DNA of 64,000 nucleotides. Origin: Chrysomallon squamiferum. Its lineage: Eukaryota > Animalia > Mollusca. Below, in pieces: positions 1,126-45,732 of the stretch. Numbering within the stretch: position 1 is the first letter of the stretch; each line of letters opens with the position of its first letter. The notes beneath the pieces were generated by a model that saw only the letters and a list, made by a program, of their open reading frames with translations, ran no database searches and was not told where the DNA came from. Location of the stretch: positions 12,152,001 to 12,216,000 of the forward strand of contig CM022678.1 in NCBI GenBank assembly GCA_012295275.1. The letters run 5' to 3'. The translations under genes and the position numbers were made by a program.

Positions 1126-1126
1126 T

Positions 1127-1170
<44 letters not shown>

Positions 1171-1716: not shown

Positions 1717-1759
<43 letters not shown>

Positions 1760-2197
1760 GACAATAAAAGAAAGACAGTAGGTTGATACCTGATAATTAA
1801 AATGTAAACTATATTTGCAAATTAACACAATACTGCTGTTTTATATTTATTATATAAGTTAATTTAATTAATATGCACTTAAGTGTTTTTAAAAAAATCA
1901 TTTTTAATCAAAAGTTAAATAACAAAACATGTAAAAGACAACATTATATACTGAAGTTTTGTATTTAATTATAATTTCATTTGTTTATAAAAATATTTTA
2001 AAATAAAAAGATAATCCTACGGTTGTCTCATAAGTTTATTTTGAAGTGTTTTTCACAATAAGATTATTCTCACCTCCAGTGGATTAACAAAAAGTATATT
2101 TGTCCTTTTAAGGACGCTTCAAAAAACTATGTGAACAAAAGATACAGACCTCTGTTTCTGCAATCTGAGTTAGTAAATAAATAAATCTCTGACTTAC

Positions 2198-18000
<15,803 letters not shown>

Positions 18001-18853: not shown

Positions 18854-20129
18854 TATAGATCGATAGACAGATCGATAGATAGTGAGGATTTTATTTTCGT
18901 TTTTCAAATTATTTGATAATCATGCATTCTTTTGTTTACATGAGTGTATAATAACGGGTTTTTTTTATTATTAAAAACTATAATAGCCTAAAAATATTAA
19001 TTTCACCAGTTTTATGCTACAGCGGGTTTCTTTACTCATTTATAAAAAAAAAAAAAAAAAAAAAAAATTAAATTTATTTATTTCGTTTGTTTTTATAATA
19101 AAATAAAATAAATAAAATTTGACATCCTATGAACATTAGAGCGGAGAACTAGAACCTAAGATACAAAGAGTCATGTCCCCTGAACTTTTATTTTTAGATT
19201 TTCAATTTGTCCATGCATGCATTTAGACAAACTAATATATTTTCATACGGAATATATATTTAAAATAATAATAAATAGTAAATTAGATGAATTGTTTCCC
19301 AATTATTTTTTCAAATAATGTAGAAATATATTAGTTACGTCATTAATTTGCAAAGATTATATTCTGCGAGAACAATCGCTTAAACGGATATTTTAAAGTA
19401 TAAACCACAAAGCGAAAAGAGACTGTAATACAGTAACAAAAAAATACAACAATAAACAAAAAGCTACAAACAAAGTAATATATTTAATGTGTCAAGCATT
19501 GTAGCTACTACTAAAGCAAAATATTAACATTATTTCTTTATTTATTTTTGTTTTGTTTGTTTGTTTCCTTACTTTATTTTATTTATTTATTTATTTATTT
19601 TTGTTATTTCAAACTGCATTACTCATTAAAATAACAAATCTAAAATTGAAACAGCATACAGAGAGAGGTCCAAAACACCTTTTTTATCTTTTTTTTGGGG
19701 GGGGTTCTTATTTTCTTATTTTTTTTTTTTTTTTATTTTTTTTTTTTTTTTTTTAATCTTTAAAGAACAAAAATTAGCTTCAGTTATAATCAAATAAGAT
19801 AAAAATTAAACACTGTGTAAAAGGATTCAAAAACCATTTTAATCTGGGAGAGTGTACTATTTGAACCGTATTTACATCTTCTGATGATTCAACTAATTGT
19901 GCAGGCTCCCCTGACTAGATTACAAGTTTAATTAATTTACTGGAATGTGCCCGATAGCCTTACCAGATATGTTACCAATTCAAATCAGTGGATCTACAAT
20001 GGAGCTAAATAAAATAAAATAAAATAGCAAAATCAATGAATGAATAAACAAAAATCGATAAATAAATAAAAAGTGTGAGTTAAATATTATCTGGTTTTAT
20101 TTATCTGTTCCCGTTTCATAAAACGTTTT

Positions 20130-20220
20130 AATATATCACGTGATTAACCGGTTTTTACAAAACATTCAGAAAGAGTTGAAGCCTACCAGTCGTTCGACTT
20201 CAAACTTTACCGGTAAGGAA
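20130..20220 (+). promoter_or_regulatory. Candidate promoter and non-coding first exon of RING gene copy 1 (duplicated at ~25890-25975)
   Basis: CpG-containing patch with palindromic E-box ATCACGTGAT (20135-20144), AACCGGTT and a donor-like CCG|GTAAGG near 20212; the CDS is preceded by an acceptor-like tttcag at 21600-21605. Confidence 0.35.
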
Positions 20221-21438
20221 AATGAACCGAAACAACAGTTAGTTCTGTTAATACCTCTACCAGCTTATATCAGTTCTTCTACCACTGTTTTATATTACTA
20301 GTCATAGATCTTTCTATTTTTAGGTAACAATGTTATCACCGTAGAATAAAGTTACTAAACTCTAAATGAATTAGGAATGCTCTCATGAATAGCTTTACAA
20401 ATTACAGGTATTTATTTATATGCTGTACATTCATATATTTATGCTTTTCTTTTATACAGGAAGTATAAATATATACTTTCTAATTTGTTTAAGATTCATT
20501 CTTTCTATTTTATCCTATTTCACAGTTATATATACAATGACAGAAAAAAAAAGTCGTTACTTCCTACTTTAGTTTCAGGTTATTACAAATGACAGTTATA
20601 TAAAATAAGTAGGTAATTATTTTAATGAATTGTTTTTTTACTCTTCTTGATTATATTATTATAGAGGCTATTTGATATGGGTGGTCACTATTCGTTTTCA
20701 AATATTAAGACTTCAACATAAGGCGGTTTAACTTTGCGTTGTATAGCCTACGTAAATTTACCATTAAAAACTATTTATAGATTTCTTGGAAATTTGGAAA
20801 CATTATATGTCGATAAAACCTGGTCTCTGTTTATCCATTCTTTTATTATTTTATTTCATTCCAATTTTTATTATTTAAAAAAAAATTTTTTTAAAAAATA
20901 TTGTGTTTATTATAATACTCATTACGTAACTATGAATTCATTTTAATATCTGTTCTGTCGTATTGGTTCTTCGTGTGTGTGTGTGTGTGTGTGTTTTTTT
21001 TTAATTTCTTTATTTTTTTATTATTTTATATTATTTTTATTTTATTTTATTTTATTTTTTTAATTTATTTATTTATTTATCTATTTATTTATTTATTTAT
21101 TTTTAATGAATTTATTTATTTTTAATGGATTTATTTATTTAGTTATTTGCTGGAGAGATAGAATATTCGGCACTTGGAAAATTCACCGGATTTAATGTTA
21201 TATTCTGGAGTGTAGTTTATAAGTTGTTTGGTTTCCATCTCCTGAATTATTATAATTTCATTCAGTTAATTATTTACGGCTAGTGTCAATATATTTATAA
21301 TTACCGAAAATAGATAAATTCATCTATTCATCATATCCCTGTGTGTCTATGTGTGTGTGTGTGTATGTGTGTGTGTGTGTGTTTTAGCAGTGATGAAGTC
21401 GATACAAAATAATAAGTTTTACTTTCTTATTTCTTTCA

Positions 21439-21471
<33 letters not shown>

Positions 21472-21542
21472 GATATATATCATAATTAATGTCGGTGTTC
21501 TTTTTGTTGTTTTAAATTACTATTTTCTTTTTACTGACCTTC

Positions 21543-21604
<62 letters not shown>

Positions 21605-21614
21605 GTTGTTAAAG

Positions 21615-22760
21615 ATGGCGGCTGCAAATTCAACTGAAGGTCACATTTCATGCAGCCTGTGTCTTGACGTGTTTAAAGATCCACGGACACTGACCTGTGG
21701 ACATACTTTTTGTCGTACCTGTCTACAGAACCACATCAACTGTAGAGAACACGAAGGTATTTTACAGTGTCCCCACTGCAGGAATACCATACACATTCCT
21801 GATCGACAGAAGCCACGCAATTCATACGCTGAACAGTTGTTACGAGTTCCGGCTCTAGTAGACGCCATAGACGGATTTAAAAAATTACAGATCGAGGAGA
21901 AGAAGAGGCTGAAGAAAAAGCTTAAACGCTGCAAACAACCAACCATCACTGAAATGACGTACATAGGACCAGAGCGTGCGTCAGCAGTACTGCAACATTA
22001 CAAAACTTTGGATACAAGGACGCCGCCATACGATAGCTTTCATCCCAATATAAAAAGTGTGCTAGTTATAGAATCTGCAAAAATTGTTTTTAGTGACTGT
22101 GCCAATTGTTCTATAAAAATGTTCAGTTTACAGACATGTCATTTAGAAAAACTTCTTCCGACTTCTGGTCGGCCTTTTGGTCTAGCAGAGTCACGTGACC
22201 TACACCTAATATGCACTCTACCTTGGGAAAGAGAAATAGTGTATCTGAATTTGCGACTGAATTTCAAATTGACGCAGCGACTGAAAACAGAGAAAGAGTA
22301 CTTCTATATTTCCGTGTTATCTAACAACCAGACGGTGGTCAGTGGGGGATGGCATGGATGTATAGATATACTGGACCAATCTGGTCAGATCATAAAATCT
22401 TTGTCCGTGGACGTCCCTGTCTGGCATATTGTGATAAATGACGAACGTCTTGTGTTTGCGTCTGAAGGGAATGCACTTAAGCGTATGGCGTTATCAGGAC
22501 ATGTGACGCAGCTGTCACGTGATTCGAGAAATCTGCGTAATATTCGAGGAGTTGCCTGTGACACGGAGGGTTTTGTTTATGTCTGTTGCAAAGAAGGTAA
22601 CTCAATTGTTCAGCTGTCCAGTAAAAGTGAAATTATTCGAGATGTCATCAACGATTCACGGTTTATTTGCAAACCCGAAACCGTCTGCTGTTTCCAGGAC
22701 AAACTTTGTGTAGCTCAAGAAGACGGAGTTGCTAAAATCTTTACTTGGTGCAACATGTAA
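21615..22760 (+). CDS. RING-HC (C3HC4) E3 ligase with C-terminal NHL/beta-propeller-like repeats, TRIM-like, copy 1 (381 aa)
   Basis: CSLC-x-CGHTFC-xx-C...CPHC RING; basic helix EEKKRLKKKLKR; propeller-like blades (RPFGLA, NIRGVACDTEGFVYVC, KPETVCC). Single coding exon; ATG in aagATGg context just after an acceptor. ORF-track start is a TTG 9 nt upstream. Confidence 0.88.
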   Translation: MAAANSTEGHISCSLCLDVFKDPRTLTCGHTFCRTCLQNHINCREHEGILQCPHCRNTIHIPDRQKPRNSYAEQLLRVPALVDAIDGFKKLQIEEKKRLKKKLKRCKQPTITEMTYIGPERASAVLQHYKTLDTRTPPYDSFHPNIKSVLVIESAKIVFSDCANCSIKMFSLQTCHLEKLLPTSGRPFGLAESRDLHLICTLPWEREIVYLNLRLNFKLTQRLKTEKEYFYISVLSNNQTVVSGGWHGCIDILDQSGQIIKSLSVDVPVWHIVINDERLVFASEGNALKRMALSGHVTQLSRDSRNLRNIRGVACDTEGFVYVCCKEGNSIVQLSSKSEIIRDVINDSRFICKPETVCCFQDKLCVAQEDGVAKIFTWCNM

Positions 22761-24030
22761 CACTGAAAGCAAAATAGAGTTATCAACGATCTAATAATAA
22801 TAGTTTTATCCGTAGTGAAATATTTTATATTATAATGGAAATTATGTTCATCCATAATAATTGTATGTTTTTTAATCGTTACAATTTTTACTTTTCAGTG
22901 CTTTTGCTCCTTCTGCTGTAACCATTTCATTACTATCAATTTCAGCACAACCAGCAATCACTGAATAAAAGTTTGACTCTAAATTATCACTGTATATATA
23001 TTTTCATGTTAATTAAAATATATTATTCTACTGAATATGTATTCTTATTTATTTATCGTTTAACATTTGGAAAATCAGTAGTTTAATAGCCTGGATAATG
23101 TGTCCCTCCCAGATTTTTTTTCTTCCAGTTCGTCTCTATATATTTACCAAAATAATGAGGAAATTTAGTATACTGATGTGAAAATATTGAGGAAAATGAG
23201 TTCTAAAAAAAACTGTATTGTTATCCAAGTCTGAAAATTTCAATATATCTGTAATTTAAAGGATCAAGAACCTAAGATTCGCCAAATATTAGGTACAAAT
23301 GTTCGTGAGGAATAAATATTCGTTCCGCCGGGGTTACAAATATTCTTTTACACCGGTCTACAGATATTGACCCATAAGGAAACCCGCTCTGTACTCAAAA
23401 GCTTATTCCTCATGCATAACGTTTTGTTATCGAGGTTGAAAAAAGAAACAATACAAACCAGGCTTTTTAAAACTGTTTATTGTCGTTTTCTGGATGATAA
23501 AGTTCTTAGTAAGTAGATAACCCATCCTGTCATTCAGCAAACGACTAGAGAAAACAATGACGGTATTTATTTATATATTCTGTAATAATTAAGTTATTAC
23601 GATTATTTAGAAGTTTTATAGTCCAATTAAAAAACTGAAGTTGAGTTAATTAACTAGAAATAAAATGTTCCAGACTGATTAATACAATAACGTCTGATCA
23701 AAATAGAAATTATTTATATTCTTTATAAAAAAAAATGTAAATGTACAACTTCAAAATAAGGTTGAATTTATTTAATTAATTACGGTTGTCTGTTTATATC
23801 TTTCTTCTAATGATGCTAACGTGATATGAAAACATTCTAAAATATTCTATGCTACGGATACTCTATGATGAAACAAACACAAGTTGTAATATAAGAGAAA
23901 CAAGTATTGTATTCAAACAGGACGTTAACTCACAGAATGACTAATGATATACTTCCTTAGCGTTCATCCAGTTGTCGGTCCGTCCATCCATCTATCCATC
24001 CAGAATTCCAATATAAGCAAGTGAGAAAAA

Positions 24031-24734
24031 TCACGTGCGCAATAACTCCAGACGGATATCCGGACTGAGAGTCAGATGTTTGGATTCGCATCTTCTGAAA
24101 AGTGTAAACGTTTTTCCAGGTACACCATTTAGGTTCTCCATGACACCGTACACGCTGGAGCTGTCCACCATGATGCTGTCGCTGTCTGTGTTGCCCTCGT
24201 CGACGTACATTGATCGGAATGTGGCAAATGGAAATCCATTACTGGACTGTTTAAATATGAGCTCAGAAACAACAAGTTCCGTTCTGTCCACTTTCGAAAT
24301 CAACGTCAGCTTTGCTTTTTCTCCATTTCTGTAAAGAATCTTCAGCTCTCGTTTATCGACGTCGATATCCACTTGATCAATGGGAGCAGAAGGTCTGACG
24401 AGGTTAGGATCAGATGTTCCAACGACAACTGATGTTCCGAACGGAATCCAGTCTAATCCAGGAGGAGCGAGGGGCAGCAGACGAACGTTTCCGTCCTGAT
24501 AGAGAACAAAAATCTCACTGAAACCTTTGGCCCAAGGAACAGTCAGGGCGATTTTAAAATAATCAGTATGAAAATTCTTTCTAGTATTCACTATCTTAAC
24601 CTTCATGGTTTCCGGAGCTCTCCACCAAAAATCCTCATCAGTTCCTTCTATTGTAATTTCATTGTTAGAATGCACTGGGAAAACCGTTTGGTTTAATACG
24701 GCGTCTTTCTAATTTGAGCTCCTCAATGAAATGA
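24031..24734 (-). pseudogene. 5'-truncated duplicate of the 592-aa secreted protein gene (C-terminal ~230 codons only)
   Basis: Matches 29775-30480 but stops at the duplication breakpoint; no signal peptide or promoter; 2-bp deletion at ~24685 (aaaacc|gttt vs aaaaccctgttt); the internal ATG is GTG here. Confidence 0.88.
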
Positions 24735-24822
24735 TTATTATTAAAAACTATTTTGGCCTAAAAATATTAATTTCACCAGTTTTATACTACAGCGGGTTTC
24801 TTTACTCATTTATTAAAAAAAA

Positions 24823-24853
<31 letters not shown>

Positions 24854-27063
24854 AATTTGTTTTTATAATAAAATAAAATAAATAAAATTTGACATCCTAT
24901 AAACATTAGAGGGGGGGAACTAGAACCTAAGATACGAAGAGTTATGTCCCCTGAACTTTTATTTTTAGATTTTGAATGTGTCCATGCATGCATTTAGACA
25001 AACTAATATATTTTGATACGGAATATATATTTAAAATAATAATAAATAGTAAATTAGATGAATCGTTTCCCAATAATGTAGAAATATATTAGTTAAGTCA
25101 TCAATTTGCAAAGATTATATCTGGGAGAACAATCGCTTAAACGGAAATTTTAAAGTATAAAACAGAAAGCGAAAACAGACTGTAATAAAATAACAAAAAA
25201 ACACAACAACAAACAAAAAGCTACAAACACAGTAATACATTTAATGTGTCAAGCATTGTAGCTACTACTAAAGCAAAATATTAACATTATTTATTTATTT
25301 ATTTTTGATTTGTTTATTTCTTTCTTTTTTTTTTTTTTTTTTTTTTTTATTTTTTTTTTATTTCAAACTGCACTACTCATCAAAATACGTATAAAAAATT
25401 TAAAATTGAAACAGCACACAGAGAGAGGTCCAAAACACCTTTTTTATCTTTTTTTTTTTTTTTTTTTTTGGTTTTTCTTATTTTTCTTATTTTCTTTTTA
25501 TTTTTTTGAAATCTTTAAAGAACAAAAATTAGCTTTAGTTATAATCAAATCAGATAAAAATTAAACACTGTGTAAAAGGATTCAAAAACCACTTTAATCT
25601 GGGAGAGTGTACTATTTGAACCGTATTTACATCTTCTGATGATTCAACTAATTGTGCAGGCTCCCCTGAGTAGATTACAAGTTTAATTAATTTACTGGAA
25701 TGTGCCCAATAGCCTTACCAGATATGTTACCAATTGCAAATCAGTAGATCTACAATGGAGCTAAATAAAATAAAATAAAATAGCAAAATCAATGAATGAA
25801 TAAACAAAAATCGATAAATAAATAAAAAGTGTCAGTTAAATATTATCTGGTTTTATTTATCTGTTCCCGTTTCATAAAACGTTTTAATATATCACGTGAT
25901 TAACCGGTTTTTACAAAACATTCAGAAAGAGTTGAAGCCTACCAGTCGTTCGACTTCAAATTTTACCGGTAAGGAAAATGAACCGAAACAACAGTTAGTT
26001 CTGTTAATACCTCTACCAGCTTATATCAGTTCTTCTACCACTGTTTTATATTACTAGTCATTGCTCTTTCTATTTTTAGGTAACAATGTTATCACCGTAG
26101 AATAAAGTTACTAAACTCTAAATGAATTAGGAATGCTCTCATGCATAGCTTTACAAATTACAGGTATTTATATGCAGTACATTCATATATTTATGCTTTT
26201 CTTTTATACAGGAAGTATAAATATATACTTTCTAATTTGTTTAAGATTCATTCTTTCTATTTTATCCTATTTCACAGTTATATATACAATGACAGAAAAA
26301 AAAGTCGTTACTTCCTACTTTAGTTTCAGGTTATTACAAATGACAGTTATATAAAATAAGTAGGTAATTATTTTTGATGAATTGTTTTTTTACTCTTTTT
26401 GATTATATTATTATAGAGGCTATTTGAACTGGGTGGTCACTATTCGTTTTCAAATATTAAGACTTCAACATAAGGCGGTTTAACTTTGCGTTGTATAGCC
26501 TACGTAAATTTACCATTAAAAACTAATTATAGATTTCTTGGAAATTTGGAAACATTATATGTCGATAAAACCTGGTCTCTGTTTATCCATTCTTTTATTA
26601 TTTTGTTTCATTCCAATTTTTATTACTTTTTTTTTTAATATTGTGTGTTTATTATAATACTAATTACGTACCCATGAATTCATTTTAATATCTGCTCTGT
26701 CGTACTGGTTCTTCATGTGTGTGTTTGTGTGTGTGTGTGTTTAGTTTTTTTAATTTGTTTATTTTTTATTATTTTTTATTATTTTTATTTTATATTTTTA
26801 ATTTATTTATTTGTTTATTTTTTTATTTTTTTATTAATTTATTTGTTTAGTTATTTGCTGGAGAATATTCGGCACTTGGAAAATTCACAGGATTTAATAT
26901 TGTGTCATATTCTGGAGTGTAGTTTATAAATTGTTTGGTTTCCATTTCCTGAATGATTATAATTTCACTGAGTTATTTACGGCTAGTGTCAATATATTTA
27001 TAATTACCGAAAATAGATAAATTTATCTATTCATCATATCCTGCGTGTGTGTGTGTGTCTGTG

Positions 27064-27103
<40 letters not shown>

Positions 27104-27263
27104 CAGTAGTGATGAAGTCGATACAAAATAATAATAGTTTTACTTTCTTATTTCTTTCATTTTTTTTCTTTTTCTCTTTAAATTTGATATATATCATCAT
27201 TAATGTCGGTGTTGTTTTTGTTGTTTGTAATTACTGTTTTCTTTTTACTGGCCTTGGTATTAC

Positions 27264-27306
<43 letters not shown>

Positions 27307-30300
27307 CTTTCAGTTGTTAAAGATGGCGGCTGCAAATTCAACTGAAGGTCACATTTCATGCAGCCTGTGTCTTGACGTGTTTAAAGATCCACGGACACTG
27401 ACCTGTGGACATACTTTTTGTCGTACCTGTCTACAGAACCACATCAACTGTAGAGAACACGAAGGTATTTTACAGTGTCCCCACTGCAGGAATACCATAC
27501 ACATTCCTGATCGACAGAAGCCACGCAATTCATACGCTGAACAGTTTTTACGAGTTCCGGCTCTAGTAGACGCCATAGATGGATTTAAAAAATTACAGAT
27601 CGGGGAGAAGAAGAGGCTGAAGAAAAAGCTTAAACGCTGCAGACAACCAACCATCACTGAAATGACGTACATAGGACCAGAGCGTGCGTCAGCAGTACTG
27701 CAACATTACAAAACTTTGGATACAAGGACGCCGCCATACGATAGCTTTCATCCCAATATAAAAAGTGTGCTAGTTATAGAATCTGCAAAAATTGTTTTTA
27801 GTGACTGTGCCAATTGTTCTATAAAAATGTTCAGTTTACAGACATGTCATTTAGAAAAACTTCTTCCGACTTCTGGTCGGCCTTTTGGTCTAGCAGAGTC
27901 ACGTGACCTACACCTAATATGCACTCTACCTTGGGAAAGAGAAATAGTGTATCTAAATTTGCGACTGAACTTCAAATTGACGCAGCGACTGAAAACAGAG
28001 AAAGAGTACTTCTATATTTCCGTGTTATCTAACAACCAGACGGTGGTCAGTGGGGGATGGCATGGATGTATAGATATACTGGACCAATCTGGTCAGATCA
28101 TAAAATCTTTGTCCGTGGACGTCCCTGTCTGGCATATTGTGATAAATGACGAACGTCTTGTGTTTGCGTCTGAAGGGAATGCACTTAAGTGTATGGCTTT
28201 ATCAGGACATGTGACGCAGCTGTCACGTGATTCGAGAAATCTGCGTAATATTCGAGGAGTTGCCTGTGACACGGAGGGTTTTGTTTATGTCTGTTGCAAA
28301 GAAGGTAACTCAATTGTTCAGCTGTCCAGTAAAAGTGAAATTATTCGAGATGTCATCAACGATTCACGGTTTATTTGCAAACCCGAAACCGTCTGCTGTT
28401 TCCAGGACAAACTTTGTGTAGCTCAAGAAGACGGAGTTGCTAAAATCTTTACTTGGTGCAACATGTAACACTGAAAGCAAAATACAGTTATCAACGATCT
28501 AATAATAATAGTTTTATCCGTAGTGAAATATTTTATATTATAATGGAAATTATGTTCATCCATAATAATTGTATGTTTTTTAATCGTTACAATTTTTACT
28601 TTTCAGTGCTTTTGCTCCTTCTGCTGCAACCATTTCATTACTATCAATTTCAGCACAACCAGCAATCAATGAATAAAAGTTTGTCTCTAAATTATCACTG
28701 TATATATATTTTCATGTTAATTAAAATATATTATTCTACTGAATATGTATTCTTATTTATTTATCGTTTAACATTTGGAAAATCAGTAGTTTAATAGCCT
28801 GGATAATGTGTCCCTCCCAGATTTTTTTTCTTCCAGTTCGTCTCTATATATTTACCAAAATAATGAGGAAATTGAGTATACTGATGTGAAAATATTGAGG
28901 AAAATGAGTTCTAAAAAAACCTGTATTGTTATCCAAGTCTGAAAATTTCAATATATCTGTAATTTAAAGGATGAAGAACCTAAGATTCGCCAAATATTAC
29001 GTACAAATGTTCGTTAGGAATAAATATTCGTTCCGCCGGGGTTACAAATATTCGAGGGAACAAATATTCTTTTACACCGGTCTACAGATATTGACCCATA
29101 AGGAAGCCCGCTCTGTAATCAAAAGCTTATTCCTCATGCATAACGTTTTGTTATCGAGGTTGAAAAAAGAAACAATACAAACCAGGCTTTTTAAAACTGT
29201 TTATTGTCGTTTTCTGGATGATAAAGTTCTTAGTAAGTAGATAACCCATCCTGTCATTCAGCAAACGACTAGATAAAACAATGACGGTATTTATTTATAT
29301 ATTCTATAATAATTAAGTTATTACGATTATTTAGAAGTTTTATAGTCCAATTAAAAAACTGAAGTTGAGTTAATTAACTAGAAATAAAATGTTCCAGACT
29401 GATTAGTACAATATCGTCTGATCAAAATAGAAATTATTTATATTCTTTATAAAAAAAATGTAAATGTACAACTTCAAAATAAGGTTGTTTTAATATAGGT
29501 TATATCTATTTGATGAATAATAATTTATCTTTCTTCTAATGATGCTAACGTGATATGAAAACATTCTAAAATATTCTATGCTACGGATACTCTATGATGA
29601 AACACAAGTTGTAAAAGAAAAGAAACAAGTATTTTATTCAAACAGGACAAGATATCTGCGGTCTGGCGTTAACTCACAGAATGACTAATGATATACTTCC
29701 TTAGCGTTCATCCAGTTGTCGGTCCGTCCATCCATCTATCCATCCAGAATTCCAATATAAGCAAGTGAGAAAAATCACGTGCGCAATAACTCCAGACGGA
29801 TATCCGGACTGAGAGTCAGATGTTTGGATTCGCATCTTCTGAAAAGTGTAAACGTTTTTCCAGGTACACCATTTAGGTTCTCCATGACACCGTACACGCT
29901 GGAGCTGTCCACCATGATGCTGTCGCTGTCTGTGTTGCCCTCGTCGACGTACATTGATCGGAATGTGGCAAATGGAAATCCCTTACTGGACTGTTTAAAT
30001 ATGAGCTCAGAAACAACAAGTTCCGTTCTGTCCACTTTCGAAATCAACGTCAGCTTTGCTTTTTCTCCATTTCTGTAAAGAATCTTCAACTCTCGTTTTT
30101 CGACGTCAATATCCACTTGATCAATGGGAGCAGAAGGTCTGACGAGGTTAGGATCAGATGTTCCAACGACAACTGATGTTCCGAACGGAATCCAGTCTAA
30201 TCCAGGAGGAGCGAGGGGCAGCAGACGAACGTTTCCGTCCTGATAGAGAACAAAAATCTCACTGAAACCTTTGGCCCAAGGAACAGACAGGGCGATTTTA

Positions 30301-30480
30301 AAATAATCAGTACGAAAATTCTTTCTAGTATTCACTATCTTAACCTTCATGGTTTCCGGAGCTCTCCACCAAAAATCCTCATCAGTTCCTTCTATTGTAA
30401 TTTCATTGTTAGAATGCATTGGGAAAACCCTGTTTGGTTTAATATGGCGTCTTTCTAATTTGAGCTCCTCAATGAAATGA
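24735..30480. repeat. Tandem segmental duplication, unit 2 (5,746 bp)
   Basis: Junction ...cctcaatgaaatga|ttattattaaaaacta... joins the 30480-equivalent position to the 18965-equivalent position. Confidence 0.95.
27323..28468 (+). CDS. RING-HC E3 ligase with NHL/beta-propeller-like repeats, TRIM-like, copy 2 (381 aa)
   Basis: Same ORF as 21615-22760 with 4 amino-acid differences (L>F, E>G, K>R, R>C). The poly-Leu N-terminal extension in the ORF track is an intronic (TTA)n microsatellite. Confidence 0.88.
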   Translation: MAAANSTEGHISCSLCLDVFKDPRTLTCGHTFCRTCLQNHINCREHEGILQCPHCRNTIHIPDRQKPRNSYAEQFLRVPALVDAIDGFKKLQIGEKKRLKKKLKRCRQPTITEMTYIGPERASAVLQHYKTLDTRTPPYDSFHPNIKSVLVIESAKIVFSDCANCSIKMFSLQTCHLEKLLPTSGRPFGLAESRDLHLICTLPWEREIVYLNLRLNFKLTQRLKTEKEYFYISVLSNNQTVVSGGWHGCIDILDQSGQIIKSLSVDVPVWHIVINDERLVFASEGNALKCMALSGHVTQLSRDSRNLRNIRGVACDTEGFVYVCCKEGNSIVQLSSKSEIIRDVINDSRFICKPETVCCFQDKLCVAQEDGVAKIFTWCNM

Positions 30481-31553
30481 CAATTTTTCCTCGATGTGAT
30501 TATTGTCAGGATTATAAGATTAAATTTAACCTCCGTCCAGGTAAAATCAGAAAAGTTCCAGACGACTTCCGTTTGCTGCTTTTTCAGTTTAGTTAATCTA
30601 AGTTTTCTAAATTTGTTTGTTCTACCTTTATACCAGCAGCTTATTGAAACCACGTGATTGAGCGGCTTCAGCCTTAGACTTAATATGGAGCCTATTTCTG
30701 AATCAATGAGACCTTTAGATCGTCCTTTTAATTTGAAAGTGATCCTTACTTGTTTTTTCATTAAATGTTTTGTGATCATTTTCATAACAACAGATTTTGA
30801 ACGAAGAACTGCATTAGTGACGTTTTCAGGTGAAAATGTCCAGAGTAGAGGTGAAAGGAATGGGCAGTTTTCGGTATTTTCCTCTCTTCTGTTTGTAAAA
30901 TCGTTATACATTGGAAGTGTTGCCGTTAGCTTGTACTCCGCAATTTCGTCAAGGTAGACTGGTATTTTGACGTTGTCTTCCTCCGCGCATTCCGTTGGAT
31001 TACTTTTATCTGTCAATACGGCCTGCTTCTGGACATTAACATTTGGTTGGAAACTGAATAAAGGTAGATCAGATAGACAGCGAAGCTTACATTCAAATAT
31101 ATCTTTACTTTTGTAGCCGGTAACATTTAGTTCAATTGTATCGAACTCCATCCCATCAGAGTTGACAACTTGAATCTTTAACACGTGTATCCCTTCGTCC
31201 AGTGTTGTTGTTCCGATCTTTCCGCTGGAATGAATAACATTCCAGTTATCTCCCGTCCTTCGCGGAGTTCGTGTGCTGATTGATCCCATTTTGATACTGT
31301 TCAAGAAAACTGAACAGTTATCAGATCGGTCGCCGTTTGAGTAACGCAAGTCGAGAACAGTTACAGACGTTCGTTTGGTCAGACAGAAGGTGAAAGAAAT
31401 ACTTTCATTGTTTTTCAAAAGTACAGTCCTGTTCACTGAAGCGTTTGACCGAAAATGCACTGTAACGGGTACCTGTAGAGACGCAGCGTGGAAAGAGTGA
31501 ACGTCACCTGAGCAACTGTAGCATAACGTAAGAAACAGCAAAAATGTTTCCAT
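29775..31553 (-). CDS. Secreted uncharacterised protein (592 aa): signal peptide, CBM6/CBM35-like module, C-terminal domain of unknown function
   Basis: 1,779-nt uninterrupted ORF; ATG at 31553 follows a strong acceptor (ttttgttctctatcag|G ATG); hydrophobic leader METFLLFLTLCYSCSG; jelly-roll-type motif LRYSNG...TGDNW...LDEGIHVLKIQV...GMEFDTIEL. Confidence 0.85.
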   Translation of the reverse strand: METFLLFLTLCYSCSGDVHSFHAASLQVPVTVHFRSNASVNRTVLLKNNESISFTFCLTKRTSVTVLDLRYSNGDRSDNCSVFLNSIKMGSISTRTPRRTGDNWNVIHSSGKIGTTTLDEGIHVLKIQVVNSDGMEFDTIELNVTGYKSKDIFECKLRCLSDLPLFSFQPNVNVQKQAVLTDKSNPTECAEEDNVKIPVYLDEIAEYKLTATLPMYNDFTNRREENTENCPFLSPLLWTFSPENVTNAVLRSKSVVMKMITKHLMKKQVRITFKLKGRSKGLIDSEIGSILSLRLKPLNHVVSISCWYKGRTNKFRKLRLTKLKKQQTEVVWNFSDFTWTEVKFNLIILTIITSRKNCHFIEELKLERRHIKPNRVFPMHSNNEITIEGTDEDFWWRAPETMKVKIVNTRKNFRTDYFKIALSVPWAKGFSEIFVLYQDGNVRLLPLAPPGLDWIPFGTSVVVGTSDPNLVRPSAPIDQVDIDVEKRELKILYRNGEKAKLTLISKVDRTELVVSELIFKQSSKGFPFATFRSMYVDEGNTDSDSIMVDSSSVYGVMENLNGVPGKTFTLFRRCESKHLTLSPDIRLELLRT

Positions 31554-31809
31554 CCTGATAGAGAACAAAACTTTCTAAATTCTGATTCAGAAGAATTCTG
31601 TAATTTCTCAGCTTTTTAAATCTGACAAATTAATCTAACAAACTGTTGTGCTTTCCTTCAGAAATATTTGATAACAGCAGTGAAAAAGGCGTTCTTTTAG
31701 AACAGTATGCTACCGCTGTCCGATTCAGACGACTTAATACCAGCTGACAGCAGTAAGCTTATTTTACATTTTTAAATAATTGTGGGGGTTTTTTAATTTT
31801 TTTTTGTTT

Positions 31810-31844
<35 letters not shown>

Positions 31845-32494
31845 TTGTTTTTTTAACGTTTGAATAGATTTATGAAATATGAGATCCATTCTAATTAAAA
31901 TGTTACATATTTAACAATAAATAAAGAAACTTCACTTTGCGTCTCAAGGCTTTTTGAAACCTAATACAGTTTGAAACTTTTGTTATCTGACATTTTTAAC
32001 ATTCATTGATTTAATTTATAATTTTTATTTTTTTTTAATTTTAATTTTTTTATTATTTTAATTTTTTTATTATTTTTTTATGATGAATATTTGATTTTGA
32101 TATATTGTTATTTTGAAATAAAAGAAAATTTATTTTTCGTTTGTAATAATTTATTGTCATTTCCATTAAATCATTTTTAATAATTCACAGTGCATATGTC
32201 TTATTTTTATTTTATTAACACAATGTATTGATCATACAGTTTTTTCATATAGCTATGTCGCGATCAATGCAATCTTTTATCAACGTCTACAGTTTACTGA
32301 TCAGTGGGCATTCTAACAACAGCCTCTAACATTAGCAGTATGGTCTTTCTATACCTGAATCAAAAACACTGAGAAATGCAGCTTCACGCGTCAGTAGTGA
32401 AAGGGGACGTAATTCGATATTACTTTCAGTCAGCTGATACAGTAATAACGATTTTATTGTTTCAGAATAACTGAATTAGTTTAATCAAGTAATT

Positions 32495-36345: not shown

Positions 36346-38923
36346 ATGGGTTTACTTACTGAAGGAACGCCATTTACGTGGGAAGAAACGAAAGCACACG
36401 CGGACCATGTTAGAAAACATGGAATTCGACAGTTCATCAATCAGTATAAAAAACTACGTGAAAGAACAAGAGATATTTTATACTGGGGTGACGAGGTAAG
36501 ATCATTTTTAGTATTTTTCAGTGAAGAGTTTCAAAGGAAATTGCAAATATAGCTTAGTTTTGTTAAAACGTGACAAATAATATAAAAATTATAGGACATC
36601 TGCAGACATCCGGGTTCTGATCTGTCAGAATGGTCCGAGTTAAACGTTTTATTTTTATTTTTATTTTTTAAATTGTTTTGGCTTTTTTTCTGCTATGGCT
36701 ATTTCTAATAATGTTCGTTAATTAAAAATAACTAACTAACTAAATAAATAAATTAACAAAGACTATATACTATATATTTTTATATCACTCTACATACATA
36801 CATACATATTAAAATGAAAAGTAATAACTTTTTGATGATATATGGTTATTATATGCAAAATCAGTTGTAATTACAGGTGTAATAATGTTTGTTTTACTTA
36901 AAAAAAGGAAAGATGAAAAGATAACACTGATTTAGTGATTATATATATTAAAATAAAAATAAATATAGCAATAATAACTGCTAAATAAATACCTTGTTAT
37001 TAATTAATTATATCATTTACATTTTGACCAACTGTTAATTAGTAATTATTACAGATGGGCTTTTGGATTGGAACTACATTATATATATAGATAGATAAAT
37101 AGATAGATCAATATAAATTATGATTTTTCCCACCTATCAGTGGCCTTGACATACATTTCTTTTACTTTTTTCTCAGTTTGATAATTAATAGTACATCTGA
37201 ATTTTATTTAAAGATTACTTATCTTTAAACCTATTAGAAATGCAAATTCAGAATCTTCATGCAGTCCAACTGAAAGTATGGAAATATGATACTTCATGCT
37301 TATTACTATTATTACATTATTATTCGTAAGTGAAATTTAAGAGTGCTTATAAATAACTGAGTAAATTATACTGAACTCATAACAAACTTTAAAAAAAAAA
37401 ATTATTATTAAGATAAAAAAAAAAAAAATAAAAAAATAAATAAAAAATAAGACAATTAATAATGAATATAATTAAATAGGAAATGATTTAAAAAGAAGAA
37501 GAAGAAGAAAAAGGAATAATTGGAATTTTGTGTTTCTGGATAATAAAAAGGGTAAACAGTGACAACATTTGACCATGTTTCTCATGGCTGTTTTCCCAGC
37601 TCATGTCAGTGATAATTTACAGTTTGTTAATGACTTGTTTACTGTAAATTTCCTTTTGGGTCAGAGAAGCGAGATAATTGCGAGCTACCCTTTCAGATAT
37701 TTATACCTGCAGCAACCCAGGTGTGCTAGGAACTAAATAGGGTGTCATGTGACTTCAGGTGTTTTAATTAGTGAACCTTGACCATGAGAATTAGTTTGTG
37801 AACAAGCACGGTCATCTCGAGATAAATAAAAGTAACTTGTAAATATTTATTTTTATAATTTATAATGGGGAAAACACATACATTGATTTTTGCCAAAAGA
37901 AATTTATAAAATAAAGTTGATGTTTATAAAAATCATATAAATGAAGGAATAAACTTATTTTTTTATTTTTTTATTTATTAAACATTTTAAAAATTATTTT
38001 AGAAATATATATAAAATATACCAAAACAGTAACCATTAGTACACATAAAGAGCTATATAATGTAATAAAATGGAAGAACAATATACAGATATAAAAACAA
38101 TTTAAAAAATGTCAAAGTATATGCAAAGAAAAATGCAGACTAAGTTGGGTTAGGTTTTTAAATTTTATTTTTTTAATATATGTGTGTTCATGTGTGTGTG
38201 TTTGTATATTATATTAATATTTTATTGTCATAAAGAATGATAAGCCAAAAATATCCCAATAATTATTAATAAAATGTTGATAATGTTTATGTTTTGCAGG
38301 TGGAATACCAGTTGATAAAGTTTGACCATAAGAATAAGAGAGCCACTCTAGCATTAAAAACACAATATGTCCTTTCTGAACTGATGAAAAAGGAAAAGGA
38401 ATGCCCAGAGTAAGTCTACCACCAAGTTTTATTGTAAAATAATTGTTTTCTGAATGAATCTTGAGTAAATATACCACCACCACTTACTAAATAATATTAT
38501 GTAATCGTAAATCTACCATCATAGGCCTATTATACAGTAATCTGAATTAATCTTGAGTAAGTCTACTAAAAGGAATTAAAGATATATAATAATTCTACCA
38601 TCATGTTTTATTGCAAAATAAAAGCTTTCTGAATTAATTATGAGTAAGTCTACTGCCACAAGTTATTATAAAAAGATTTTTATATAATATAATTTCTAAC
38701 TGTAAAATAATAGTATTGTAATTTATCCTGAATAAAACACTAAAACTATTCCTTAAATAAGTTTTAGTAAGACTATACCACCCACTTCTTATTAATGTTT
38801 TTAACTCAGTAATATTATTCTTAATTAAACCCTAGTAGGAATATTACTATCACCTGTTATAAAAAACATGACAATATTCTTAAATAATCCACACTAAGTT
38901 TATTTCCGTATCCTCTGTTCTTC

Positions 38924-38975
<52 letters not shown>

Positions 38976-41405
38976 AATATATAGATATAGATGTATATCA
39001 GATATACATATGTGTGTGTGTGTGTGTGTGGACTGTTAAAACCGGATTTACTTGAGACCAACTAGACATGGCGTTTTAGACAAAGGTCAAACTGAGATGA
39101 AATTGGTATATGTTTTATTACAAATGTTATCAAATGTCTATCAAATGTCAGCTCAGAGATAGTCTATCACAGATGACTGCATTTTTTTTCATGTTTCTTT
39201 TCAAAGCAAACCCCACTGTCATGGCCTTCATTTGTAACACTGGTTGCAAAACTCTGCTTTTGGTAGTAGTATCAGCAAGAGATTTAATTTCTTTTACTAT
39301 TTTAAAAACATCATTGTACAAAATATAGTCAGTGTGCTTCAAATTTTTGACTTGCTGGTCTTCAGTTTCTCTCTGCTGAACTGTAGAGTTGCCAGTAATA
39401 GCAGAGGTCTCGGTACATACTGTAAATGAAACAGACACTTTGATTTTATTTAATTGCTGGTAAAATAAACTTGTTAATATTCAATGCATTTGGTGCAGTT
39501 ATTTATTGGAGTGTTTTTGACAAACAAGTAATTTGAACATTGTTCAAAGTACTTGTACGCTGAAACGTTTCTGTACCATCCCTTACCTTGCCCCAGTTAA
39601 GCTGATACCTGCCATCTCTTTCACAAATGCTGGGGAGAGCACTGAATGGTCACTAAGTTTTAAACTGCATGGTGAAATCTTTTCCTTTCCACAGTGGATT
39701 TTATGAAAGCTCTTCTGTTAGGAAAAGTTGATGCAATTCTTAGGTCACTGACATTACAACAAATTTAGTAAGTCAGTGCAAATAGGGCAACATACATGTT
39801 TATGAAACTTCTACTTTTGACAATAAATGAGTGAATTCACTTAGATACACTAATATAAATCTTGTTCATCTAGCTGCATGTAATAATTACAAGAAGCATT
39901 GTTTATTAAACCTTTAAAAAATAAAATCTATATATATTCATATTTGATTGTGACGAGTCTCCAACTATTTTGTTAACAGAACTGACCAAGCCCATTGTTT
40001 CTTTGTACATAATTTGACATCATCAGAGAATGCAGACAGAGCTGATTGGATCTAAGTATATTTTAAAACAGAAGTTTATCACTATAACATAAATTATTCT
40101 AATCAAAGGCCAAACCTCGGAGATAATTAATATTAGATGCATTTATCTCTGATTATACAGTCTAACTAATTCCCTGGCAAACATACACATGATGATGATG
40201 AGGCATTTTTGAAAGGTTTCCAGAGAATGTTTATAATCAACAGTTACTCAGCTTTAACACCATGTCTTATATTGCTAATTATTTTCCAGTGATCATCCAA
40301 CAACATGGAGACCTGAGTATGCAGAGTACATGGTGGAGGGCACGCCCGGGAGTCCATACGGTGGGCTTATGGCTAATTTCAATGTCGTGGAGGCCAACAT
40401 GAAACTGAGGTAAACTGGATTTTTTAAATTCATATTTCTGTATATTAGTAATAATAATACTTGCACACATCCTTTTTGTATTGCTTTTTATCTCTGTGTA
40501 TTATTTGTCTTTCTGTAAATGAAATATAATAATCAGTGCATTGTTATTTATTAACAAAGTCTAGTAAAAAGAACATAAAAAAAAGATTAAAGAATTATTA
40601 AAATACTTTATTAAGTTTTAAAATCAGTGCCAGCTGGCTTCTTGTTTGTCACCATTTGATGACTGAATCATAAATATTTATTGTTATTTATCTCTTTATA
40701 AATGAATTATAATAACTGCATTGTTATTTATTTCTGTATTGTTATTTACGTCTCCTTAAATAAAATAATAAATTTTCATTGTATATTTATTTATTTATTT
40801 ATTTCTGTAAATCGATTAAACTAACCACTAGTAAAATAATTTTCTTTGATGATTATAATAAACAACTTTTAGAACTCCAGTCACCAAGGATAAAGCAGTA
40901 TTCAGTATTTGTTTAAGTTCAGATCACAGGAATATTTTTAATTTACTTTTTTTTATTTAATTATTTTATACTTCATCTTGAAAAAGAAACTTTGATGATT
41001 TATTATGTTCAGTAAATATTTATGATTCAGTCATCAAATGGATGTGACAAACACGAAACCAGCTGGAATTGATTTTAAAACTTAATAAAGTATTTTAATA
41101 ATTCTTTAATCTTTTTTTATGTTCTTTTTACTAGACTTTGTTAATAAAAAAAAACTCAACAATAACAAACAATAAAATTAATACTGTAATAATAAAAACC
41201 CCAAAAAAACAGTAACAAAGACTAACAAAATTAGTACTTCAGTAATAATTAAAAAAACAAAAACAAAACCACTAATAAAATGTAATCTTATGTTATGCTT
41301 GGAATGATGTGTTTTTGGTACCACAGAACAGAAGTTAATAAAAGTTTCAAATTTCAAACTGAGTCAGTATAACTGAAAAATATGCTTAGTGTGTTGTTAG
41401 TAATT

Positions 41406-41445
<40 letters not shown>

Positions 41446-44142
41446 GAAATGGCAAATATCAGTTGTATAATTAATTATACTTTATTATAAGCAAAGATTG
41501 GTGTTCACATCACTTGTAAGCATGCAGACTATATTCAGCATGTTTGTACAGTAAAGTACATTTTTAATAATCAAGAGTTCACTTGTATTCACTTTCCTGT
41601 GGAGTTTAATTATAAATATTTCTGTTTATTTTACAGAAGGGAAGAAATTAAACAGCTGCTGGGTGATGATGAAGCACCACTGTCTTTAACAGTTTTCCCC
41701 AGGTTTGTTGTTACCTTTACCTTACAAAACAACAATCAGTAATTATGTGCATGAAGAGTGTGAAAAAAAAAAGCATATTGAAAATGATTTTACATTTATA
41801 AACATCATTTGTTTCTACGAATTGCTTGAATATGTGCACGAAGAGTTTACAGTGTGAAAAAACTTGCATGTTGAAAATGATTTTACATTTATAAACATCA
41901 TTGTTTCTAAAAATTGCTTGAATGTGTGTAGATTTCTAAACATTCGGACTGTTTTGTTAAACGTTGTAGGTTGGGGTGTGGCCAGTTCACTGATCCGCCC
42001 TATGAAGCAAATCCATCCTCAGGAGCATCAAGGTCAATATTTTACCCTGACGAGGCTATCAACAGTGGCCATCCTAGATTCAAGTAAATTTTTTTATCAT
42101 TCTTTTCAAAAAAACTAACTTAGTACAAGAGTCACCGATTTTTCACTAATTTCTTACTCCTCCATGGACTTTAAAATCACATTTAAATGGACTATGTACA
42201 TTTTGAATGTATGATTGCAATGCAGCTCTGTACAAAGGTTTATTGGTTTGTTTTTTTTTAACTTAGAAATAGCTTAAGAATTCTTATAGTTATTGTTGAC
42301 TTGATGAATTGTTGGTAAGTGTATAGTTTTAATCTGATTGCTTTCAGAACCTTAACAAGAAATATCCGTGAAAGGCGAGGAGCAAAGGTTGCTATTAACA
42401 TACCAAGTGAGTGAGCTCATTTTGTTTATTTTTTATTTTTTTTTTAGCTTGATTATTAAAACCATAAAATAGCTCTCTTTGCATCAGAAATAAATGGTTA
42501 TGATAAAAGGCCAGGTTTACTTAAAACGTAATCTTCCTTTATTCTCAGTCATCATTAATCTTCAACATTATTTTATTATCACAGTCCTACTTTTCTTTTT
42601 TTAAAGGAATTAATATCTCTACAGACTTAGTCTAGCCCCCTTTTTTAACATTTAATTTTTGTTTTATCACTAATAAATTGTCAACAGCATTTCTAAAGAA
42701 TAAGTCAAGTTGACTTTGTTTTATAATGAAAAAGATAAAGAAATACCGAATTAAATATATATATATACACAATAAATTTCCTTTTACAAAGATGATGCTT
42801 ACAACAGATCTTTTCCTCATTATCAACCCAAGAAAGGCTTCAGTAGGTTTTTCTCTTAGAGAGTGATACTCTGACAAGTATTTACTGTTCACATTTCACA
42901 TACTGCAGTGACATTATTGTCATTTCAGTTTTCAAAGACAAAAACACAAAAGAACCATTTATTGAAGACTTCTCGCAGCTTGGTGACAACGGCAAATCTC
43001 AGAGTGCAGCCCTGCCCGACCACATCTACATGGACTGCATGGGCTTTGGCATGGGCTGCTGCTGTCTGCAGGTGACTTTCCAGGCCTGCTGCATGGCTGA
43101 GGCTCGACTCTTGTACGACCAACTGTCCACTCTCTGCCCCATATTTGTAAGTAGCTTTAAAACATCACTGAGCAGAGTGTCTTCTTTTACATAAAACATC
43201 ACTGCAGAGTGTCTTCTTTTACATAAAACATCACTGAGCAGAATGTCTTCTTTTACATAAAACATCACTGAGCAGAGTGTCTTCTTTTACATAAAACATC
43301 ACTGTGCATAATGTCTTCTTTTAAATAAAACATCACTGAGCAGAGTGTCTTCTTTTAAATAAAACATCACTGTGCAGAATGTCTTCTTTTAAATAAAACA
43401 TCACTGTGCAGAATGTCTTCTTTTAAATAAAACTTCTATTAAAATGAGTCTTTTCATGTACAGTGGTACATTTTAGATCAAATATCTTAGGTTTGTTTGG
43501 TAGTCTTCATTTTGTTTTTATTGCCACAAAAATAAAAAAAAATAAAAATGCAACCAACAGAAAATCTTTATTTATATAATTGTTTTAATAATGTCTTTTT
43601 AAGTTGAATATTTGTCTTTGTAAATAGCATAGCTTTTCACATGAATGTCTTTTTTAAATATTTAATTTTGTATTTAAGTTAAATAGTTGTCTTCATACAT
43701 TATACATCTTTCAACATAGAATATCTTCTTTTTTTTTTTATTTATTTATTTATTTCTTTTTTTTAATGTTTTTTTAAGTTGTGTATCTTATTTTGTAAGT
43801 GATGGAATTTTTTACGTACAATATTCTTTATTTAATTATTATTTAATAATTTTGTGTATAAGTTGAATATCTGTGTAGGTAGCATCCCTTTTGAAATGGA
43901 ATATTTTTATTTAGTTAAGTTTGCAGAGTTGATTCAAAATTAGAATTCTGTATATTAACAAATCTTACTCCATATAATTGTGCCCAGTATTTTTGCAATT
44001 GTGTCTTAGAAACAAGACACAATTTTAGTTGCTTGAAAAAAACTTAAATATTTTTTTTTTCAATGTAGTATATTTCTTGCTAAAAAGAATAATAATTTTT
44101 TTCCCTTCTTTTTAATATATCTTAATTTTCTTTTAAATTCTT

Positions 44143-44173: not shown

Positions 44174-45695
44174 CTACAAGCATTTAATGATTGTTATGTT
44201 CCTTCCCCATTCCTGTCCCTCTGAACAAGCAATAACAAATCAGTAATACATCAGCATGGAAAGAAAAACACGAAAATTATATATCTTGATTAAATTTCAA
44301 CTAGCTGTTTATTATTTAGTTTTTACATGAGTTATTACACTTGCATGAAGACTTAATAGTAATCTTGCCCACAAAAATATAGCAGATTATCTAAATATTT
44401 CAAAATTTTAAACTGTTTCTTCTTATTTGTTAACATCTGTTGACAACAGATTCCTAGTATTTTTAAAAACAATAAAGGAATAGTTTCTGCTTGGTCAGTC
44501 ATCATATTTGTTACTTCATTAAAAATAATTTCTCTGACTCTACTAGAAATGTTCTGTGTATTTTATTATTATCAAATTGAGAAAGTAATTGCAATTAAAT
44601 CAGCAGACAAACTTTCTTTAAAACCCTTTCTTGTTTTCTCTCTATTTGATACAGTTTATACTCTGTGCAATCACGGACTATAATCTTATGACTGATCTTT
44701 CTGGCCAGTCTAAAACTCGTCTAAGGATGCTAACATGAAACTACAATTTTTGATTACTATATCGCTAAATATTTGAATAATTCTGTGAACAGACTGCAAG
44801 AAAATACATTTTTTCGAAAAAAAACAGTTTTTTCAGAAAAACATCTCTTCGTATAACAAATAAACCGTGAAAGCGTTGTAGTTTGCATGAACCCAGCTTT
44901 CTCCGTAGCCTCCGTCAACTAGCATCACATACACCTGGTCTCCGAAGGCCAGTTTGCTGATTGTCTGGATGCTGCTGGACGGGTAGAAACCAGCATTCTT
45001 GCTGTCGTCTGCCCACAGAGCAGCCACGGGTCGGTTGTTGATGAAAATCCTCGCGTTCACCTTGGCCCCTGGGTGTGACATGAGATAGAGAGAGATGACG
45101 TAGATGCCTGGAATTGACGTCATGAAGACGCCCGAAGTGTTGTCGTAGTTGTCTGCTAGGTCGATCAGTTTGAGGTCAAAGGGGATGATGACGTTTTTGT
45201 CAGGGCCAAAGTGGTCAGTGAGCACCGCTGTGGATGCAGCCTGAAGTTTTACTTGTGGAAGGTCTTCAGTTGTGTTGGCTGCTGGTCCTGGTGGTCCTGG
45301 TTAAAATAAAATTGAGAAATATAAGAACAAATAACACACGTTTTAAAATTTTTAACTCATTGAGACTACATAACTATATAGTTACATACATTATGTAGAT
45401 AGATTACAGAGATATGGATATAGAAAATGATATAGATAGATATACATGCTATTTGCTATTTATTTACTTATGTTTTTTTGAGAACTAATGAAAAATAATC
45501 ATTAGAGCCTGACTTTTCCCCCTTTTTAACAGTTAACTTTTCTTTTGTCACTTTTAAATTGTTAAATAACACCACTAAAGACTAAGACTAGCCTTAATGA
45601 AAATATAGAAAAAATATTAAATTATATTATATAAAATATATATGTATAATATATAGATATAAAATTGTTTTTCAAAGATTTTGTTTCTTTGTCTG

Positions 45696-45732
<37 letters not shown>

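Follow-up and report, generated by a model that had tools for sequence, protein, structure and literature searches.

The analysed window, 64,000 nucleotides of the Chrysomallon squamiferum genome (GenBank assembly GCA_012295275.1, contig CM022678.1, positions 12,152,001 to 12,216,000), contains an intronless gene for a protein of 592 residues, here called P0001. The best reading of this gene is that its product is a protein of three modules, likely secreted, with a core that is a circularly permuted beta-glucan hydrolase resembling glycoside hydrolase family GH186 (the OpgG/OpgD proteins), and that it was gained from a bacterium early in mollusc history. We put the probability of this reading as a whole at about 55%. 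The gene has the following parts, in coordinates of the window.

29775..31553, minus strand: full coding sequence, a single open reading frame (ORF) of 592 aa (P0001)
31506..31553, minus strand: likely signal peptide, residues 1-16, recognised by eye, by an N-terminal helix in the model and by the hydrophobic N-termini of homologues
31113..31505, minus strand: domain of the predicted CBM6/CBM35 fold (CBM, carbohydrate-binding module), residues 17-147, from a fold match of the model
30858..31040, minus strand: N-block, residues 172-232, three strands with invariant C189, E191, D193 and N194
30975..30977, minus strand: D193, candidate general acid and putative equivalent of EcOpgD D388
30438..30854, minus strand: inserted beta-rich domain, residues 234-372, probably CBM-like and common to a bacterial subgroup
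29778..30437, minus strand: core C-domain, residues 373-592, predicted to have the OpgG/OpgD (GH186) beta-supersandwich fold
29928..29930, minus strand: D542, candidate general base and putative equivalent of EcOpgD D300

P0001 has 52 homologues with 28-53% identity (proteins of 325-1036 aa; 7,996 candidates were scored). All 29 organism-labelled matches come from molluscs, namely gastropods, bivalves and the chiton Liolophura, and the nearest of them are 40-43% identical to P0001. Three further clusters, found by 7 + 9 cluster look-ups, are labelled Haliotis, Crassostrea and Mytilus. One of the 52 matches, P0053, is of the bacterial type. Another, P0048, is of the animal type and basal in all trees, has a hydrophobic C-terminal tail and carries an insert nearer to the bacterial inserts; it is possibly from a non-mollusc. 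The gene thus belongs to a genuine family that is conserved among molluscs and has a core of prokaryotic type. All mollusc annotations seen label its members as uncharacterized.

The first-pass annotation of this DNA had pointed to a collinear series of motifs in bacterial secreted proteins. Such proteins do exist: residues 380-592, compared with shorter proteins, led to P0062 (319 aa, lipoprotein-like), where the whole motif series is contiguous. A search with P0062 produced 209 relatives among 1,191 candidates. The profiles of the animal (53 rows) and bacterial (115 rows) proteins match with 100% probability and E 1.7e-70, with a gap at P0001 residues 234-372. The family profile covers 840 clusters at 50% identity, animals included, of which 150 are listed. 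In species-representative genomes, 34 loci were found in Acidobacteriota, Chloroflexota, Planctomycetota, Verrucomicrobiota, Nitrospirota, Bacteroidota and others. Proteobacteria account for few of them, and the proteobacterial source suggested by the annotation is not supported. In all, the prokaryotic members cover at least ten phyla, and the cluster of one of them, P0277, is labelled Methanothrix.

In many of the longer members the core is accompanied by modules for surface attachment, sorting or glycan binding (PA14, CBM4_9, CBM6, dockerin, SLH, PEP-CTERM, a T9SS tail). The module scan comprised 70 proteins: 68 of the 115 new representatives, each of at least 400 aa, together with P0053 and P0048. 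A PEP-CTERM tail is present in P0293, and another fusion partner in the family is fascin-like. P0281 and P0297 are taken as prokaryotic from their architecture. Secretion and the fusion to a CBM, both regarded earlier as animal additions, occur in prokaryotic members as well. The family common to molluscs and bacteria is probably carbohydrate-active. The earlier proposal of a carbohydrate-binding or carbohydrate-active family acquired from bacteria holds as to the sharing with bacteria, the CBM-fold module and a tree consistent with it, but has no support as to the proteobacterial source.

An unannotated domain of about 600 aa is fused or adjacent to the family core in four cases (P0253, residues 21-625; L017, 3319-5286; P0162; P0279). 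It has no match in Pfam, NCBIfam or PDB sequences. Judging only by its motifs it may be helical and glycosidase-like, and it is a candidate for a further glycosidase. No family matching four motifs of this six-hairpin domain was found in the supplements of PMC12102758.

Judging by the AlphaFold2 models of P0001 (predicted local distance difference test, pLDDT, 90.5; predicted template modelling score, pTM, 0.84) and P0062 (pLDDT 92.9, pTM 0.86), the core very probably has a GH186-like fold. The core of P0001 aligns with E. coli OpgG (1txk) at a VIA Z of 15.8 (root-mean-square deviation, rmsd, 3.6; 221 residues aligned) and with Xanthomonas OpgD (8x18) at 15.3 (rmsd 2.8; 208 aligned). The P0062 model matches GH186 at Z 15.4 and 14.6; these two are the only ones of 48,161 chains at Z of at least 8, and the next value is 7.2. 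Six GH186 entries score Z 14.5-15.7 against the same model. The identity in the structural alignments to GH186 is 8-12%. In Foldseek the P0062 model has one match below 1e-3, which is OpgG, and the full-length P0001 model has low-TM multi-domain CBM matches. The annotation had proposed this kind of check; it had noticed neither the predicted GH186-like fold of the core nor the likely circular permutation and the beta-1,2-glucan gene context described below. Supersandwiches of the galactose-mutarotase type (aldose epimerase, the YidC periplasmic domain, PL26, beta-galactosidase domain 5) belong to the same fold class. However, they reach Z of at most 7.2 with 130-170 residues aligned, and this is background likeness only.

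The general acid of EcOpgD is D388 and its general base D300; R359, E385, T386, Y356 and Loop A assist them (PMC10514313; PMC11228985). All structural alignments stop at EcOpgD 367 or OpgG 340-342, that is, before the acid (D388 and D361, respectively). P583 falls on P360 at the alignment end, and the D388 segment is unmatched. Circular permutation of the catalytic acid to the N-terminus is a probable solution, in which the N-block likely corresponds to the three final strands of the GH186 catalytic domain, moved to the front. By eye, the N-block pattern T-x5-D-N-[VI] corresponds to T382..D388-N389-I390 of EcOpgD. The candidate acid D193 is kept in 51 of the 52 animal-type rows and in 93% of the 115 bacterial-type rows. 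The candidate base D542 is kept in 48 of 52 (there are 3 gaps) and is invariant in the bacterial-type rows. An end-anchored global profile alignment to GH186 scores 7.9, as compared with -12.4 for the reversed profile and a mean of -14.9 (standard deviation 5.6, maximum -1.4) for 25 column shuffles. It puts D542 on D300 and R443 on R184 in three of four gap settings, and RSM on TSM in all four.

Co-variation was analysed in 308 rows (effective number of sequences, Meff, 257; about 37,000 pairs; P0062 numbering). The N-block and the C-domain are coupled through C87-C186 (z 11.8), G83-R304, I73-I193, N61-T256 and I64-I316. A further coupling, A55-N266 (z 5.1, rank 43), adjoins D58 and D268, the latter being D542, and the pair A43-L318 (z 3.9, rank 98) brings the core termini next to each other. 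These couplings place the N-block in the sandwich, the acidic loop beside the candidate-base loop, and the core ends close to each other. Close core ends fit what a permutant needs. A complex prediction for the N-block with the C-domain scored 0.18 against a mark of 0.34 and favours neither side.

A number of observations weigh against the GH186 relationship and the permutation. Firstly, sequence and profile likeness to GH186 is not significant: hhalign gives E 0.13-0.97, and the best E of our own GH186 hidden Markov model (HMM) in the fetched set is 0.22. The Pfam families listed for the 53 and 115 rows (25 of 77 families shown for the latter) do not include PF04349, and neither P0001 nor P0062 has a Pfam match. 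A bridge through a GH186-remote family was sought, and that family matches GH186 (97%, E 9e-12) but the core family only at E 0.048. Secondly, the D388 register is the second of about 540 windows with the bacterial profile, no better than shuffles (p 0.6), and an unbiased gapped scan of the N-block picked other sites, also not above shuffles. Thirdly, the position of R359, just before P583 (= P360), is occupied by Ser or Ala, and that of E385 by Ala; the invariant R532 might serve in place of R359. Finally, the C-terminal domain with Loop A is missing, as P0062 consists of the signal, the N-block and the C-domain, and P0001 ends at the equivalent of OpgG 342.

The GH186-remote subfamily occurs in ORFs of 1,500-2,400 aa in 6 of 401 genomes of G091's phylum and keeps the D300 and D388 motifs.

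L064, 4038-4997, minus strand; also L065, L067-L071, L088-L091: GH186-remote subfamily

The likeness to GH186 thus comprises the putative equivalents of D300, R184, G193, S279-M280 and P360 and, by permutation, of D388-N389. The family differs in having no detectable sequence similarity, in being likely permuted and in not keeping R359, E385 and Loop A. Features present only in the family are the predicted disulfide C54-C94 (C189-C230 in P0001), the CBM modules, and animal and at least one archaeal carriers. In view of the missing profile match, of the Ser/Ala and Ala at the R359 and E385 positions and of the lack of a Loop A domain, the family is filed as working like GH186 and not as its member.

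Residues 15-148 of the model align with the CBM35 domain of 3zm8 at VIA Z 14.4 (rmsd 2.6, 122 residues aligned), in agreement with the CBM6/35-like segment noticed earlier. This jelly-roll resembles CBM6/CBM35, but P0001 itself has no Pfam match; Pfam CBM_6 is matched by 15 of the 53 alignment rows (E of at most 0.05, best 4.2e-6), P0001 not being among them. An HMM of the animal CBM matches P0281 and P0182, the latter with the best value among the fetched prokaryotic proteins (E 4e-31) and with the same order, CBM then core, as P0001.

The insert (about 139 aa, residues 234-372) splits the core of P0001. It is probably a CBM-like domain, to judge from the full-length model and weak PF14683 matches, including one in the insert region of P0297 (E 1.5e-7). 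A long insert is present in 4 of 182 bacterial-type proteins, those in which both motifs were found. The HMM of the animal insert matches P0281 (E 1e-10), P0293 (5e-9) and P0297 (1e-5). The net charge of the insert is +20 in P0001 and between -15 and +11 in the other 51 animal-type rows. As P0281, P0293 and P0297 carry the insert, and only that of P0001 is strongly basic, it is an inherited domain and not basic animal filler. Thus the annotation was right that some 130 residues interrupt the core, but their basic character is peculiar to P0001, and the beta-rich domain is no animal addition.

Trees were built from the C-domain only, with the insert columns excluded, and are unrooted and without an outgroup. 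The sets were 308 domains, reduced to 181 by removal of near-copies (FastTree), 62 rows (quick search) and 32 rows (careful search); the two latter were hand-picked, with the named lineages and the four nearest prokaryotic-type rows retained. The animal-type rows form one clade in all trees (100/99 in the 32-row tree). It joins P0293/P0297 (95/92) and then P0281/P0277 (100/99), and three of these four carry the insert. However, the midpoint root is unstable: the animal clade is nested in the 181- and 32-row trees, whereas in the 62-row tree the root falls on the animal branch. Also, a single clade made up of the four nearest prokaryotic proteins is not rejected by an approximately unbiased (AU) test (p 0.062). 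One animal clade joined to prokaryotic proteins is consistent with a bacterial origin, but the nesting hangs on the root. Since there is no outgroup and the AU p is 0.062, the direction of transfer is inferred. Transfer from bacteria to animals is favoured with good confidence, because all three modules are widespread in prokaryotes as opposed to one animal clade.

One alternative is that the family is older than molluscs in eukaryotes, due either to vertical descent with losses or to transfer into an early animal. P0048, with its hydrophobic tail, branches below all mollusc sequences, and a wider distribution could be concealed in a search where 150 of 840 clusters are listed and 7,996 candidates were scored, with an unrooted tree. 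However, the organism-labelled full-length matches (29 of 29) and the three further labelled clusters are all molluscan, and among the prokaryotic members, which come from at least ten phyla, each of the three modules is represented. We consider the older origin unlikely. Bacteria-derived carbohydrate-active genes of animals, such as nematode and beetle cellulases and the aerolysin-like genes of Biomphalaria, are comparable in that their products are secreted, patchy in distribution and related to prokaryotic proteins. They belong to named, assayed families, whereas the P0001 family has no Pfam or NCBIfam model or sequence-related solved structure.

Some evidence on the substrate comes from the bacterial loci. 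Pfam was applied to 80 of 228 flanking ORFs and NCBIfam to 29 proteins, and the partners were then sought in all 34 loci. In L014, the family gene is followed by an OpgH/MdoH-like synthase gene (E 9e-30, below the NCBIfam cut-off) and then by a gene for a GH144-like glucanase (6e-28 to XCC2207; 1e-21 to the endo-beta-1,2-glucanase 5gzh), in an order resembling opgG-opgH. In L015, an OpgH-like synthase, also below the NCBIfam cut-off, is encoded three genes away. Both loci are from Planctomycetota; the synthases are 36% identical, and the family genes of the two loci are not sisters. Two of the seven OpgH-like genes in the 32 carrier genomes lie in family flanks, which make up 0.18% of the DNA (post hoc p ~7e-5). 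In P0251 and P0239, the family core is fused to a GH189-like domain.

However, 32 of the 34 bacterial loci have no OpgH-like or GH144-like neighbour. PF10091 was found in 16 of 32 carrier genomes and in 14 and 9 genomes, respectively, of two background sets of 60 (one set includes G136); this enrichment was dropped, as in genomes of at least 4.5 Mb the counts are 13 of 23 and 13 of 38 (p 0.11). A canonical PF04349 match is present in 4 of the 32 carrier genomes, and GH186 is described as mainly proteobacterial (PMC11228985). Beta-1,2-glucan is a somewhat favoured candidate substrate for the bacterial members, and a tentative one, falling short of even odds, in molluscs.

In the proposed mechanism, the N-block would close the sandwich so that D193 as the acid and D542 as the base face the same cleft, and cleavage would be inverting, as it is in EcOpgD. 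The polysaccharide would be held by the pair of CBM-like modules. The bacterial members would act on beta-1,2-glucan, and the mollusc enzyme might digest or sense bacterial beta-1,2-glucan or might have shifted to another beta-glucan.

Catalytic activity is fairly likely. Another possibility is that the mollusc protein is a non-catalytic glucan-binding lectin or pattern-recognition protein on a GH186-like scaffold. Invertebrate glucan receptors derived from GH16 glucanases provide a precedent, and the two CBM-like modules would suit this role. The equivalents of R359 and E385 and Loop A, required for the activity of EcOpgD, are not kept, and EcOpgG is reported to be barely active despite keeping the catalytic residues (PMC10514313). 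On the other hand, XccOpgD is reported to be active with a short Loop A (PMC11228985). Moreover, conservation is high at D193, E191, D439, R443, R532, D542, R572 and H578 (47-52 of the 52 animal-type rows and 93-100% of the bacterial-type rows), as expected of an active site. The lectin explanation is rather improbable.

It is similarly improbable that the protein is an enzyme acting on some other glycan, such as algal laminarin or another beta-linked polysaccharide, with the GH186 likeness confined to the fold and the catalytic acid not permuted. This would account for the failed sequence tests and the identity of 10-12% in structural alignments, for the varied fusion partners (PA14, CBM4_9, CBM6, dockerin, fascin-like) and for the absence of beta-1,2-glucan genes from most loci. 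However, a Z of 15, compared with 7 for all other supersandwiches, the collinear conserved residues and the three kinds of beta-1,2-glucan-related partner all favour the permuted GH186-like hydrolase.

Contamination by bacterial DNA, or an artefact of the assembly, might be suspected from a coding sequence without introns and homologues in bacteria, but is a negligible possibility: the gene has animal neighbours (glutamate-cysteine ligase exons, RING, C1q) in DNA of about 29% GC, many mollusc assemblies have homologues, on contigs as long as 165 Mb, and the 3' part of the gene with its downstream flank recurs in another sequencing run.

The reading frame of 31553-29775 on the minus strand agrees with the earlier description of an intronless 592-aa gene, and all motifs quoted there are present in the translation. 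The signal peptide described there is also accepted as putative, residues 1-16 being hydrophobic by eye. The flanking genes had been described as intron-rich. This is true of the glutamate-cysteine ligase gene, but not of the two nearest downstream genes, both of which encode RING proteins in a long single ORF.

36346-41700, plus strand: gene of the glutamate-cysteine ligase catalytic subunit, intron-containing and head to head with the P0001 gene; first exon 36346-36496

Further upstream, a C1q-domain exon and a Thr/Asp-rich, secreted-looking exon lie at 44833-47187 on the minus strand and probably form one gene. Minisatellites with units of about 36 and 34 bp are located at 49566-50192 and 43158-43433, respectively. 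The long ORF at 49685-50224 is the minisatellite itself, and its GvpO match contains no passing stretch.

The 3' 40% of the P0001 gene lies inside a tandem repeat with a unit of 5.77 kb that was overlooked in the first-pass annotation. The RING gene of the unit is a single-ORF gene of RING/beta-propeller-like type.

18965..30480, no strand assigned: tandem pair of units, each about 5.77 kb long, with 94% identity between them; a unit carries one RING-domain gene plus the 3' part of the P0001 gene
24031..24734, minus strand: truncated second gene copy, residues ~358-592, with a 2-nt deletion near the 5' end and the N-terminal half gone
31546..31570, minus strand: 25-nt stretch with the putative splice acceptor and the ATG, identical to internal coding positions 30231-30255 except for one base

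Reads were mapped over 29300-31990. In run X2, the repeat junction sequence forms a loose end at 30480, and the depth is about 600-3,400 at 29750-30200 compared with about 100 on each side (~6-30-fold). The junction and the raised depth suggest an amplified repeat with many copies. RNA contigs cover 29778-30198 and 30945-30991 (47 bases). Three alleles of the truncated repeat copy, along with others, are found in the main X1 contig; because it carries these alleles, the RNA contigs do not demonstrate that the full gene is expressed. No RNA coverage was seen for the 5' 60% of the gene, which counts against the favoured reading, although missing coverage proves nothing.

The putative acceptor at 31554 is an AG with a pyrimidine tract in front of it, and no RNA contig spans this position. 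The 25-nt stretch has three matches in the window and none in 100 shuffles, and its internal copy is read in another frame. The closest homologue, P0301, has a longer and different N-terminus. Since the start codon lies in this self-copy and the N-terminus of P0301 differs, the present start of P0001 may, on sequence grounds, come from a duplicated gene fragment.

P0001 has no match in Pfam, NCBIfam or PDB sequences, and no relative was found in viral contigs. The ESM Atlas gave weak leads, the top ones being 0.91 (122 shared features) and 0.84. The best rows of one further search of the core (E 0.044) were treated as chance. The family is not mentioned in the titles and abstract openings of the literature on MdoG/OpgG in eukaryotes, mollusc transfers and mollusc beta-1,2-glucan, the transfer tables of mollusc genome papers being outside this scope. 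We found no publication that joins OpgG with circular permutation or names any of six gene identifiers or Lottia 159264, and no report of a beta-1,2-glucan-degrading animal enzyme in the literature searched.

The boldest version of these conclusions would define a new glycoside hydrolase family, a permutant of GH186, whose complete three-module form would have passed from a bacterium to the mollusc ancestor and become a secreted, multi-copy enzyme directed against bacterial beta-1,2-glucan in gastropods, bivalves and chitons. In full this is doubtful. The more modest result is that some 840 clusters, forming a family for which neither Pfam nor NCBIfam has a model, gain a predicted fold as well as candidates for the catalytic residues and for the substrate. 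A permuted sister family of GH186 without Loop A would probe how far the water-relay mechanism can be rebuilt. As the core family is bacterial and its predicted fold is that of OpgG/OpgD, molluscs likely carry a bacteria-derived enzyme that would cut beta-glucan.

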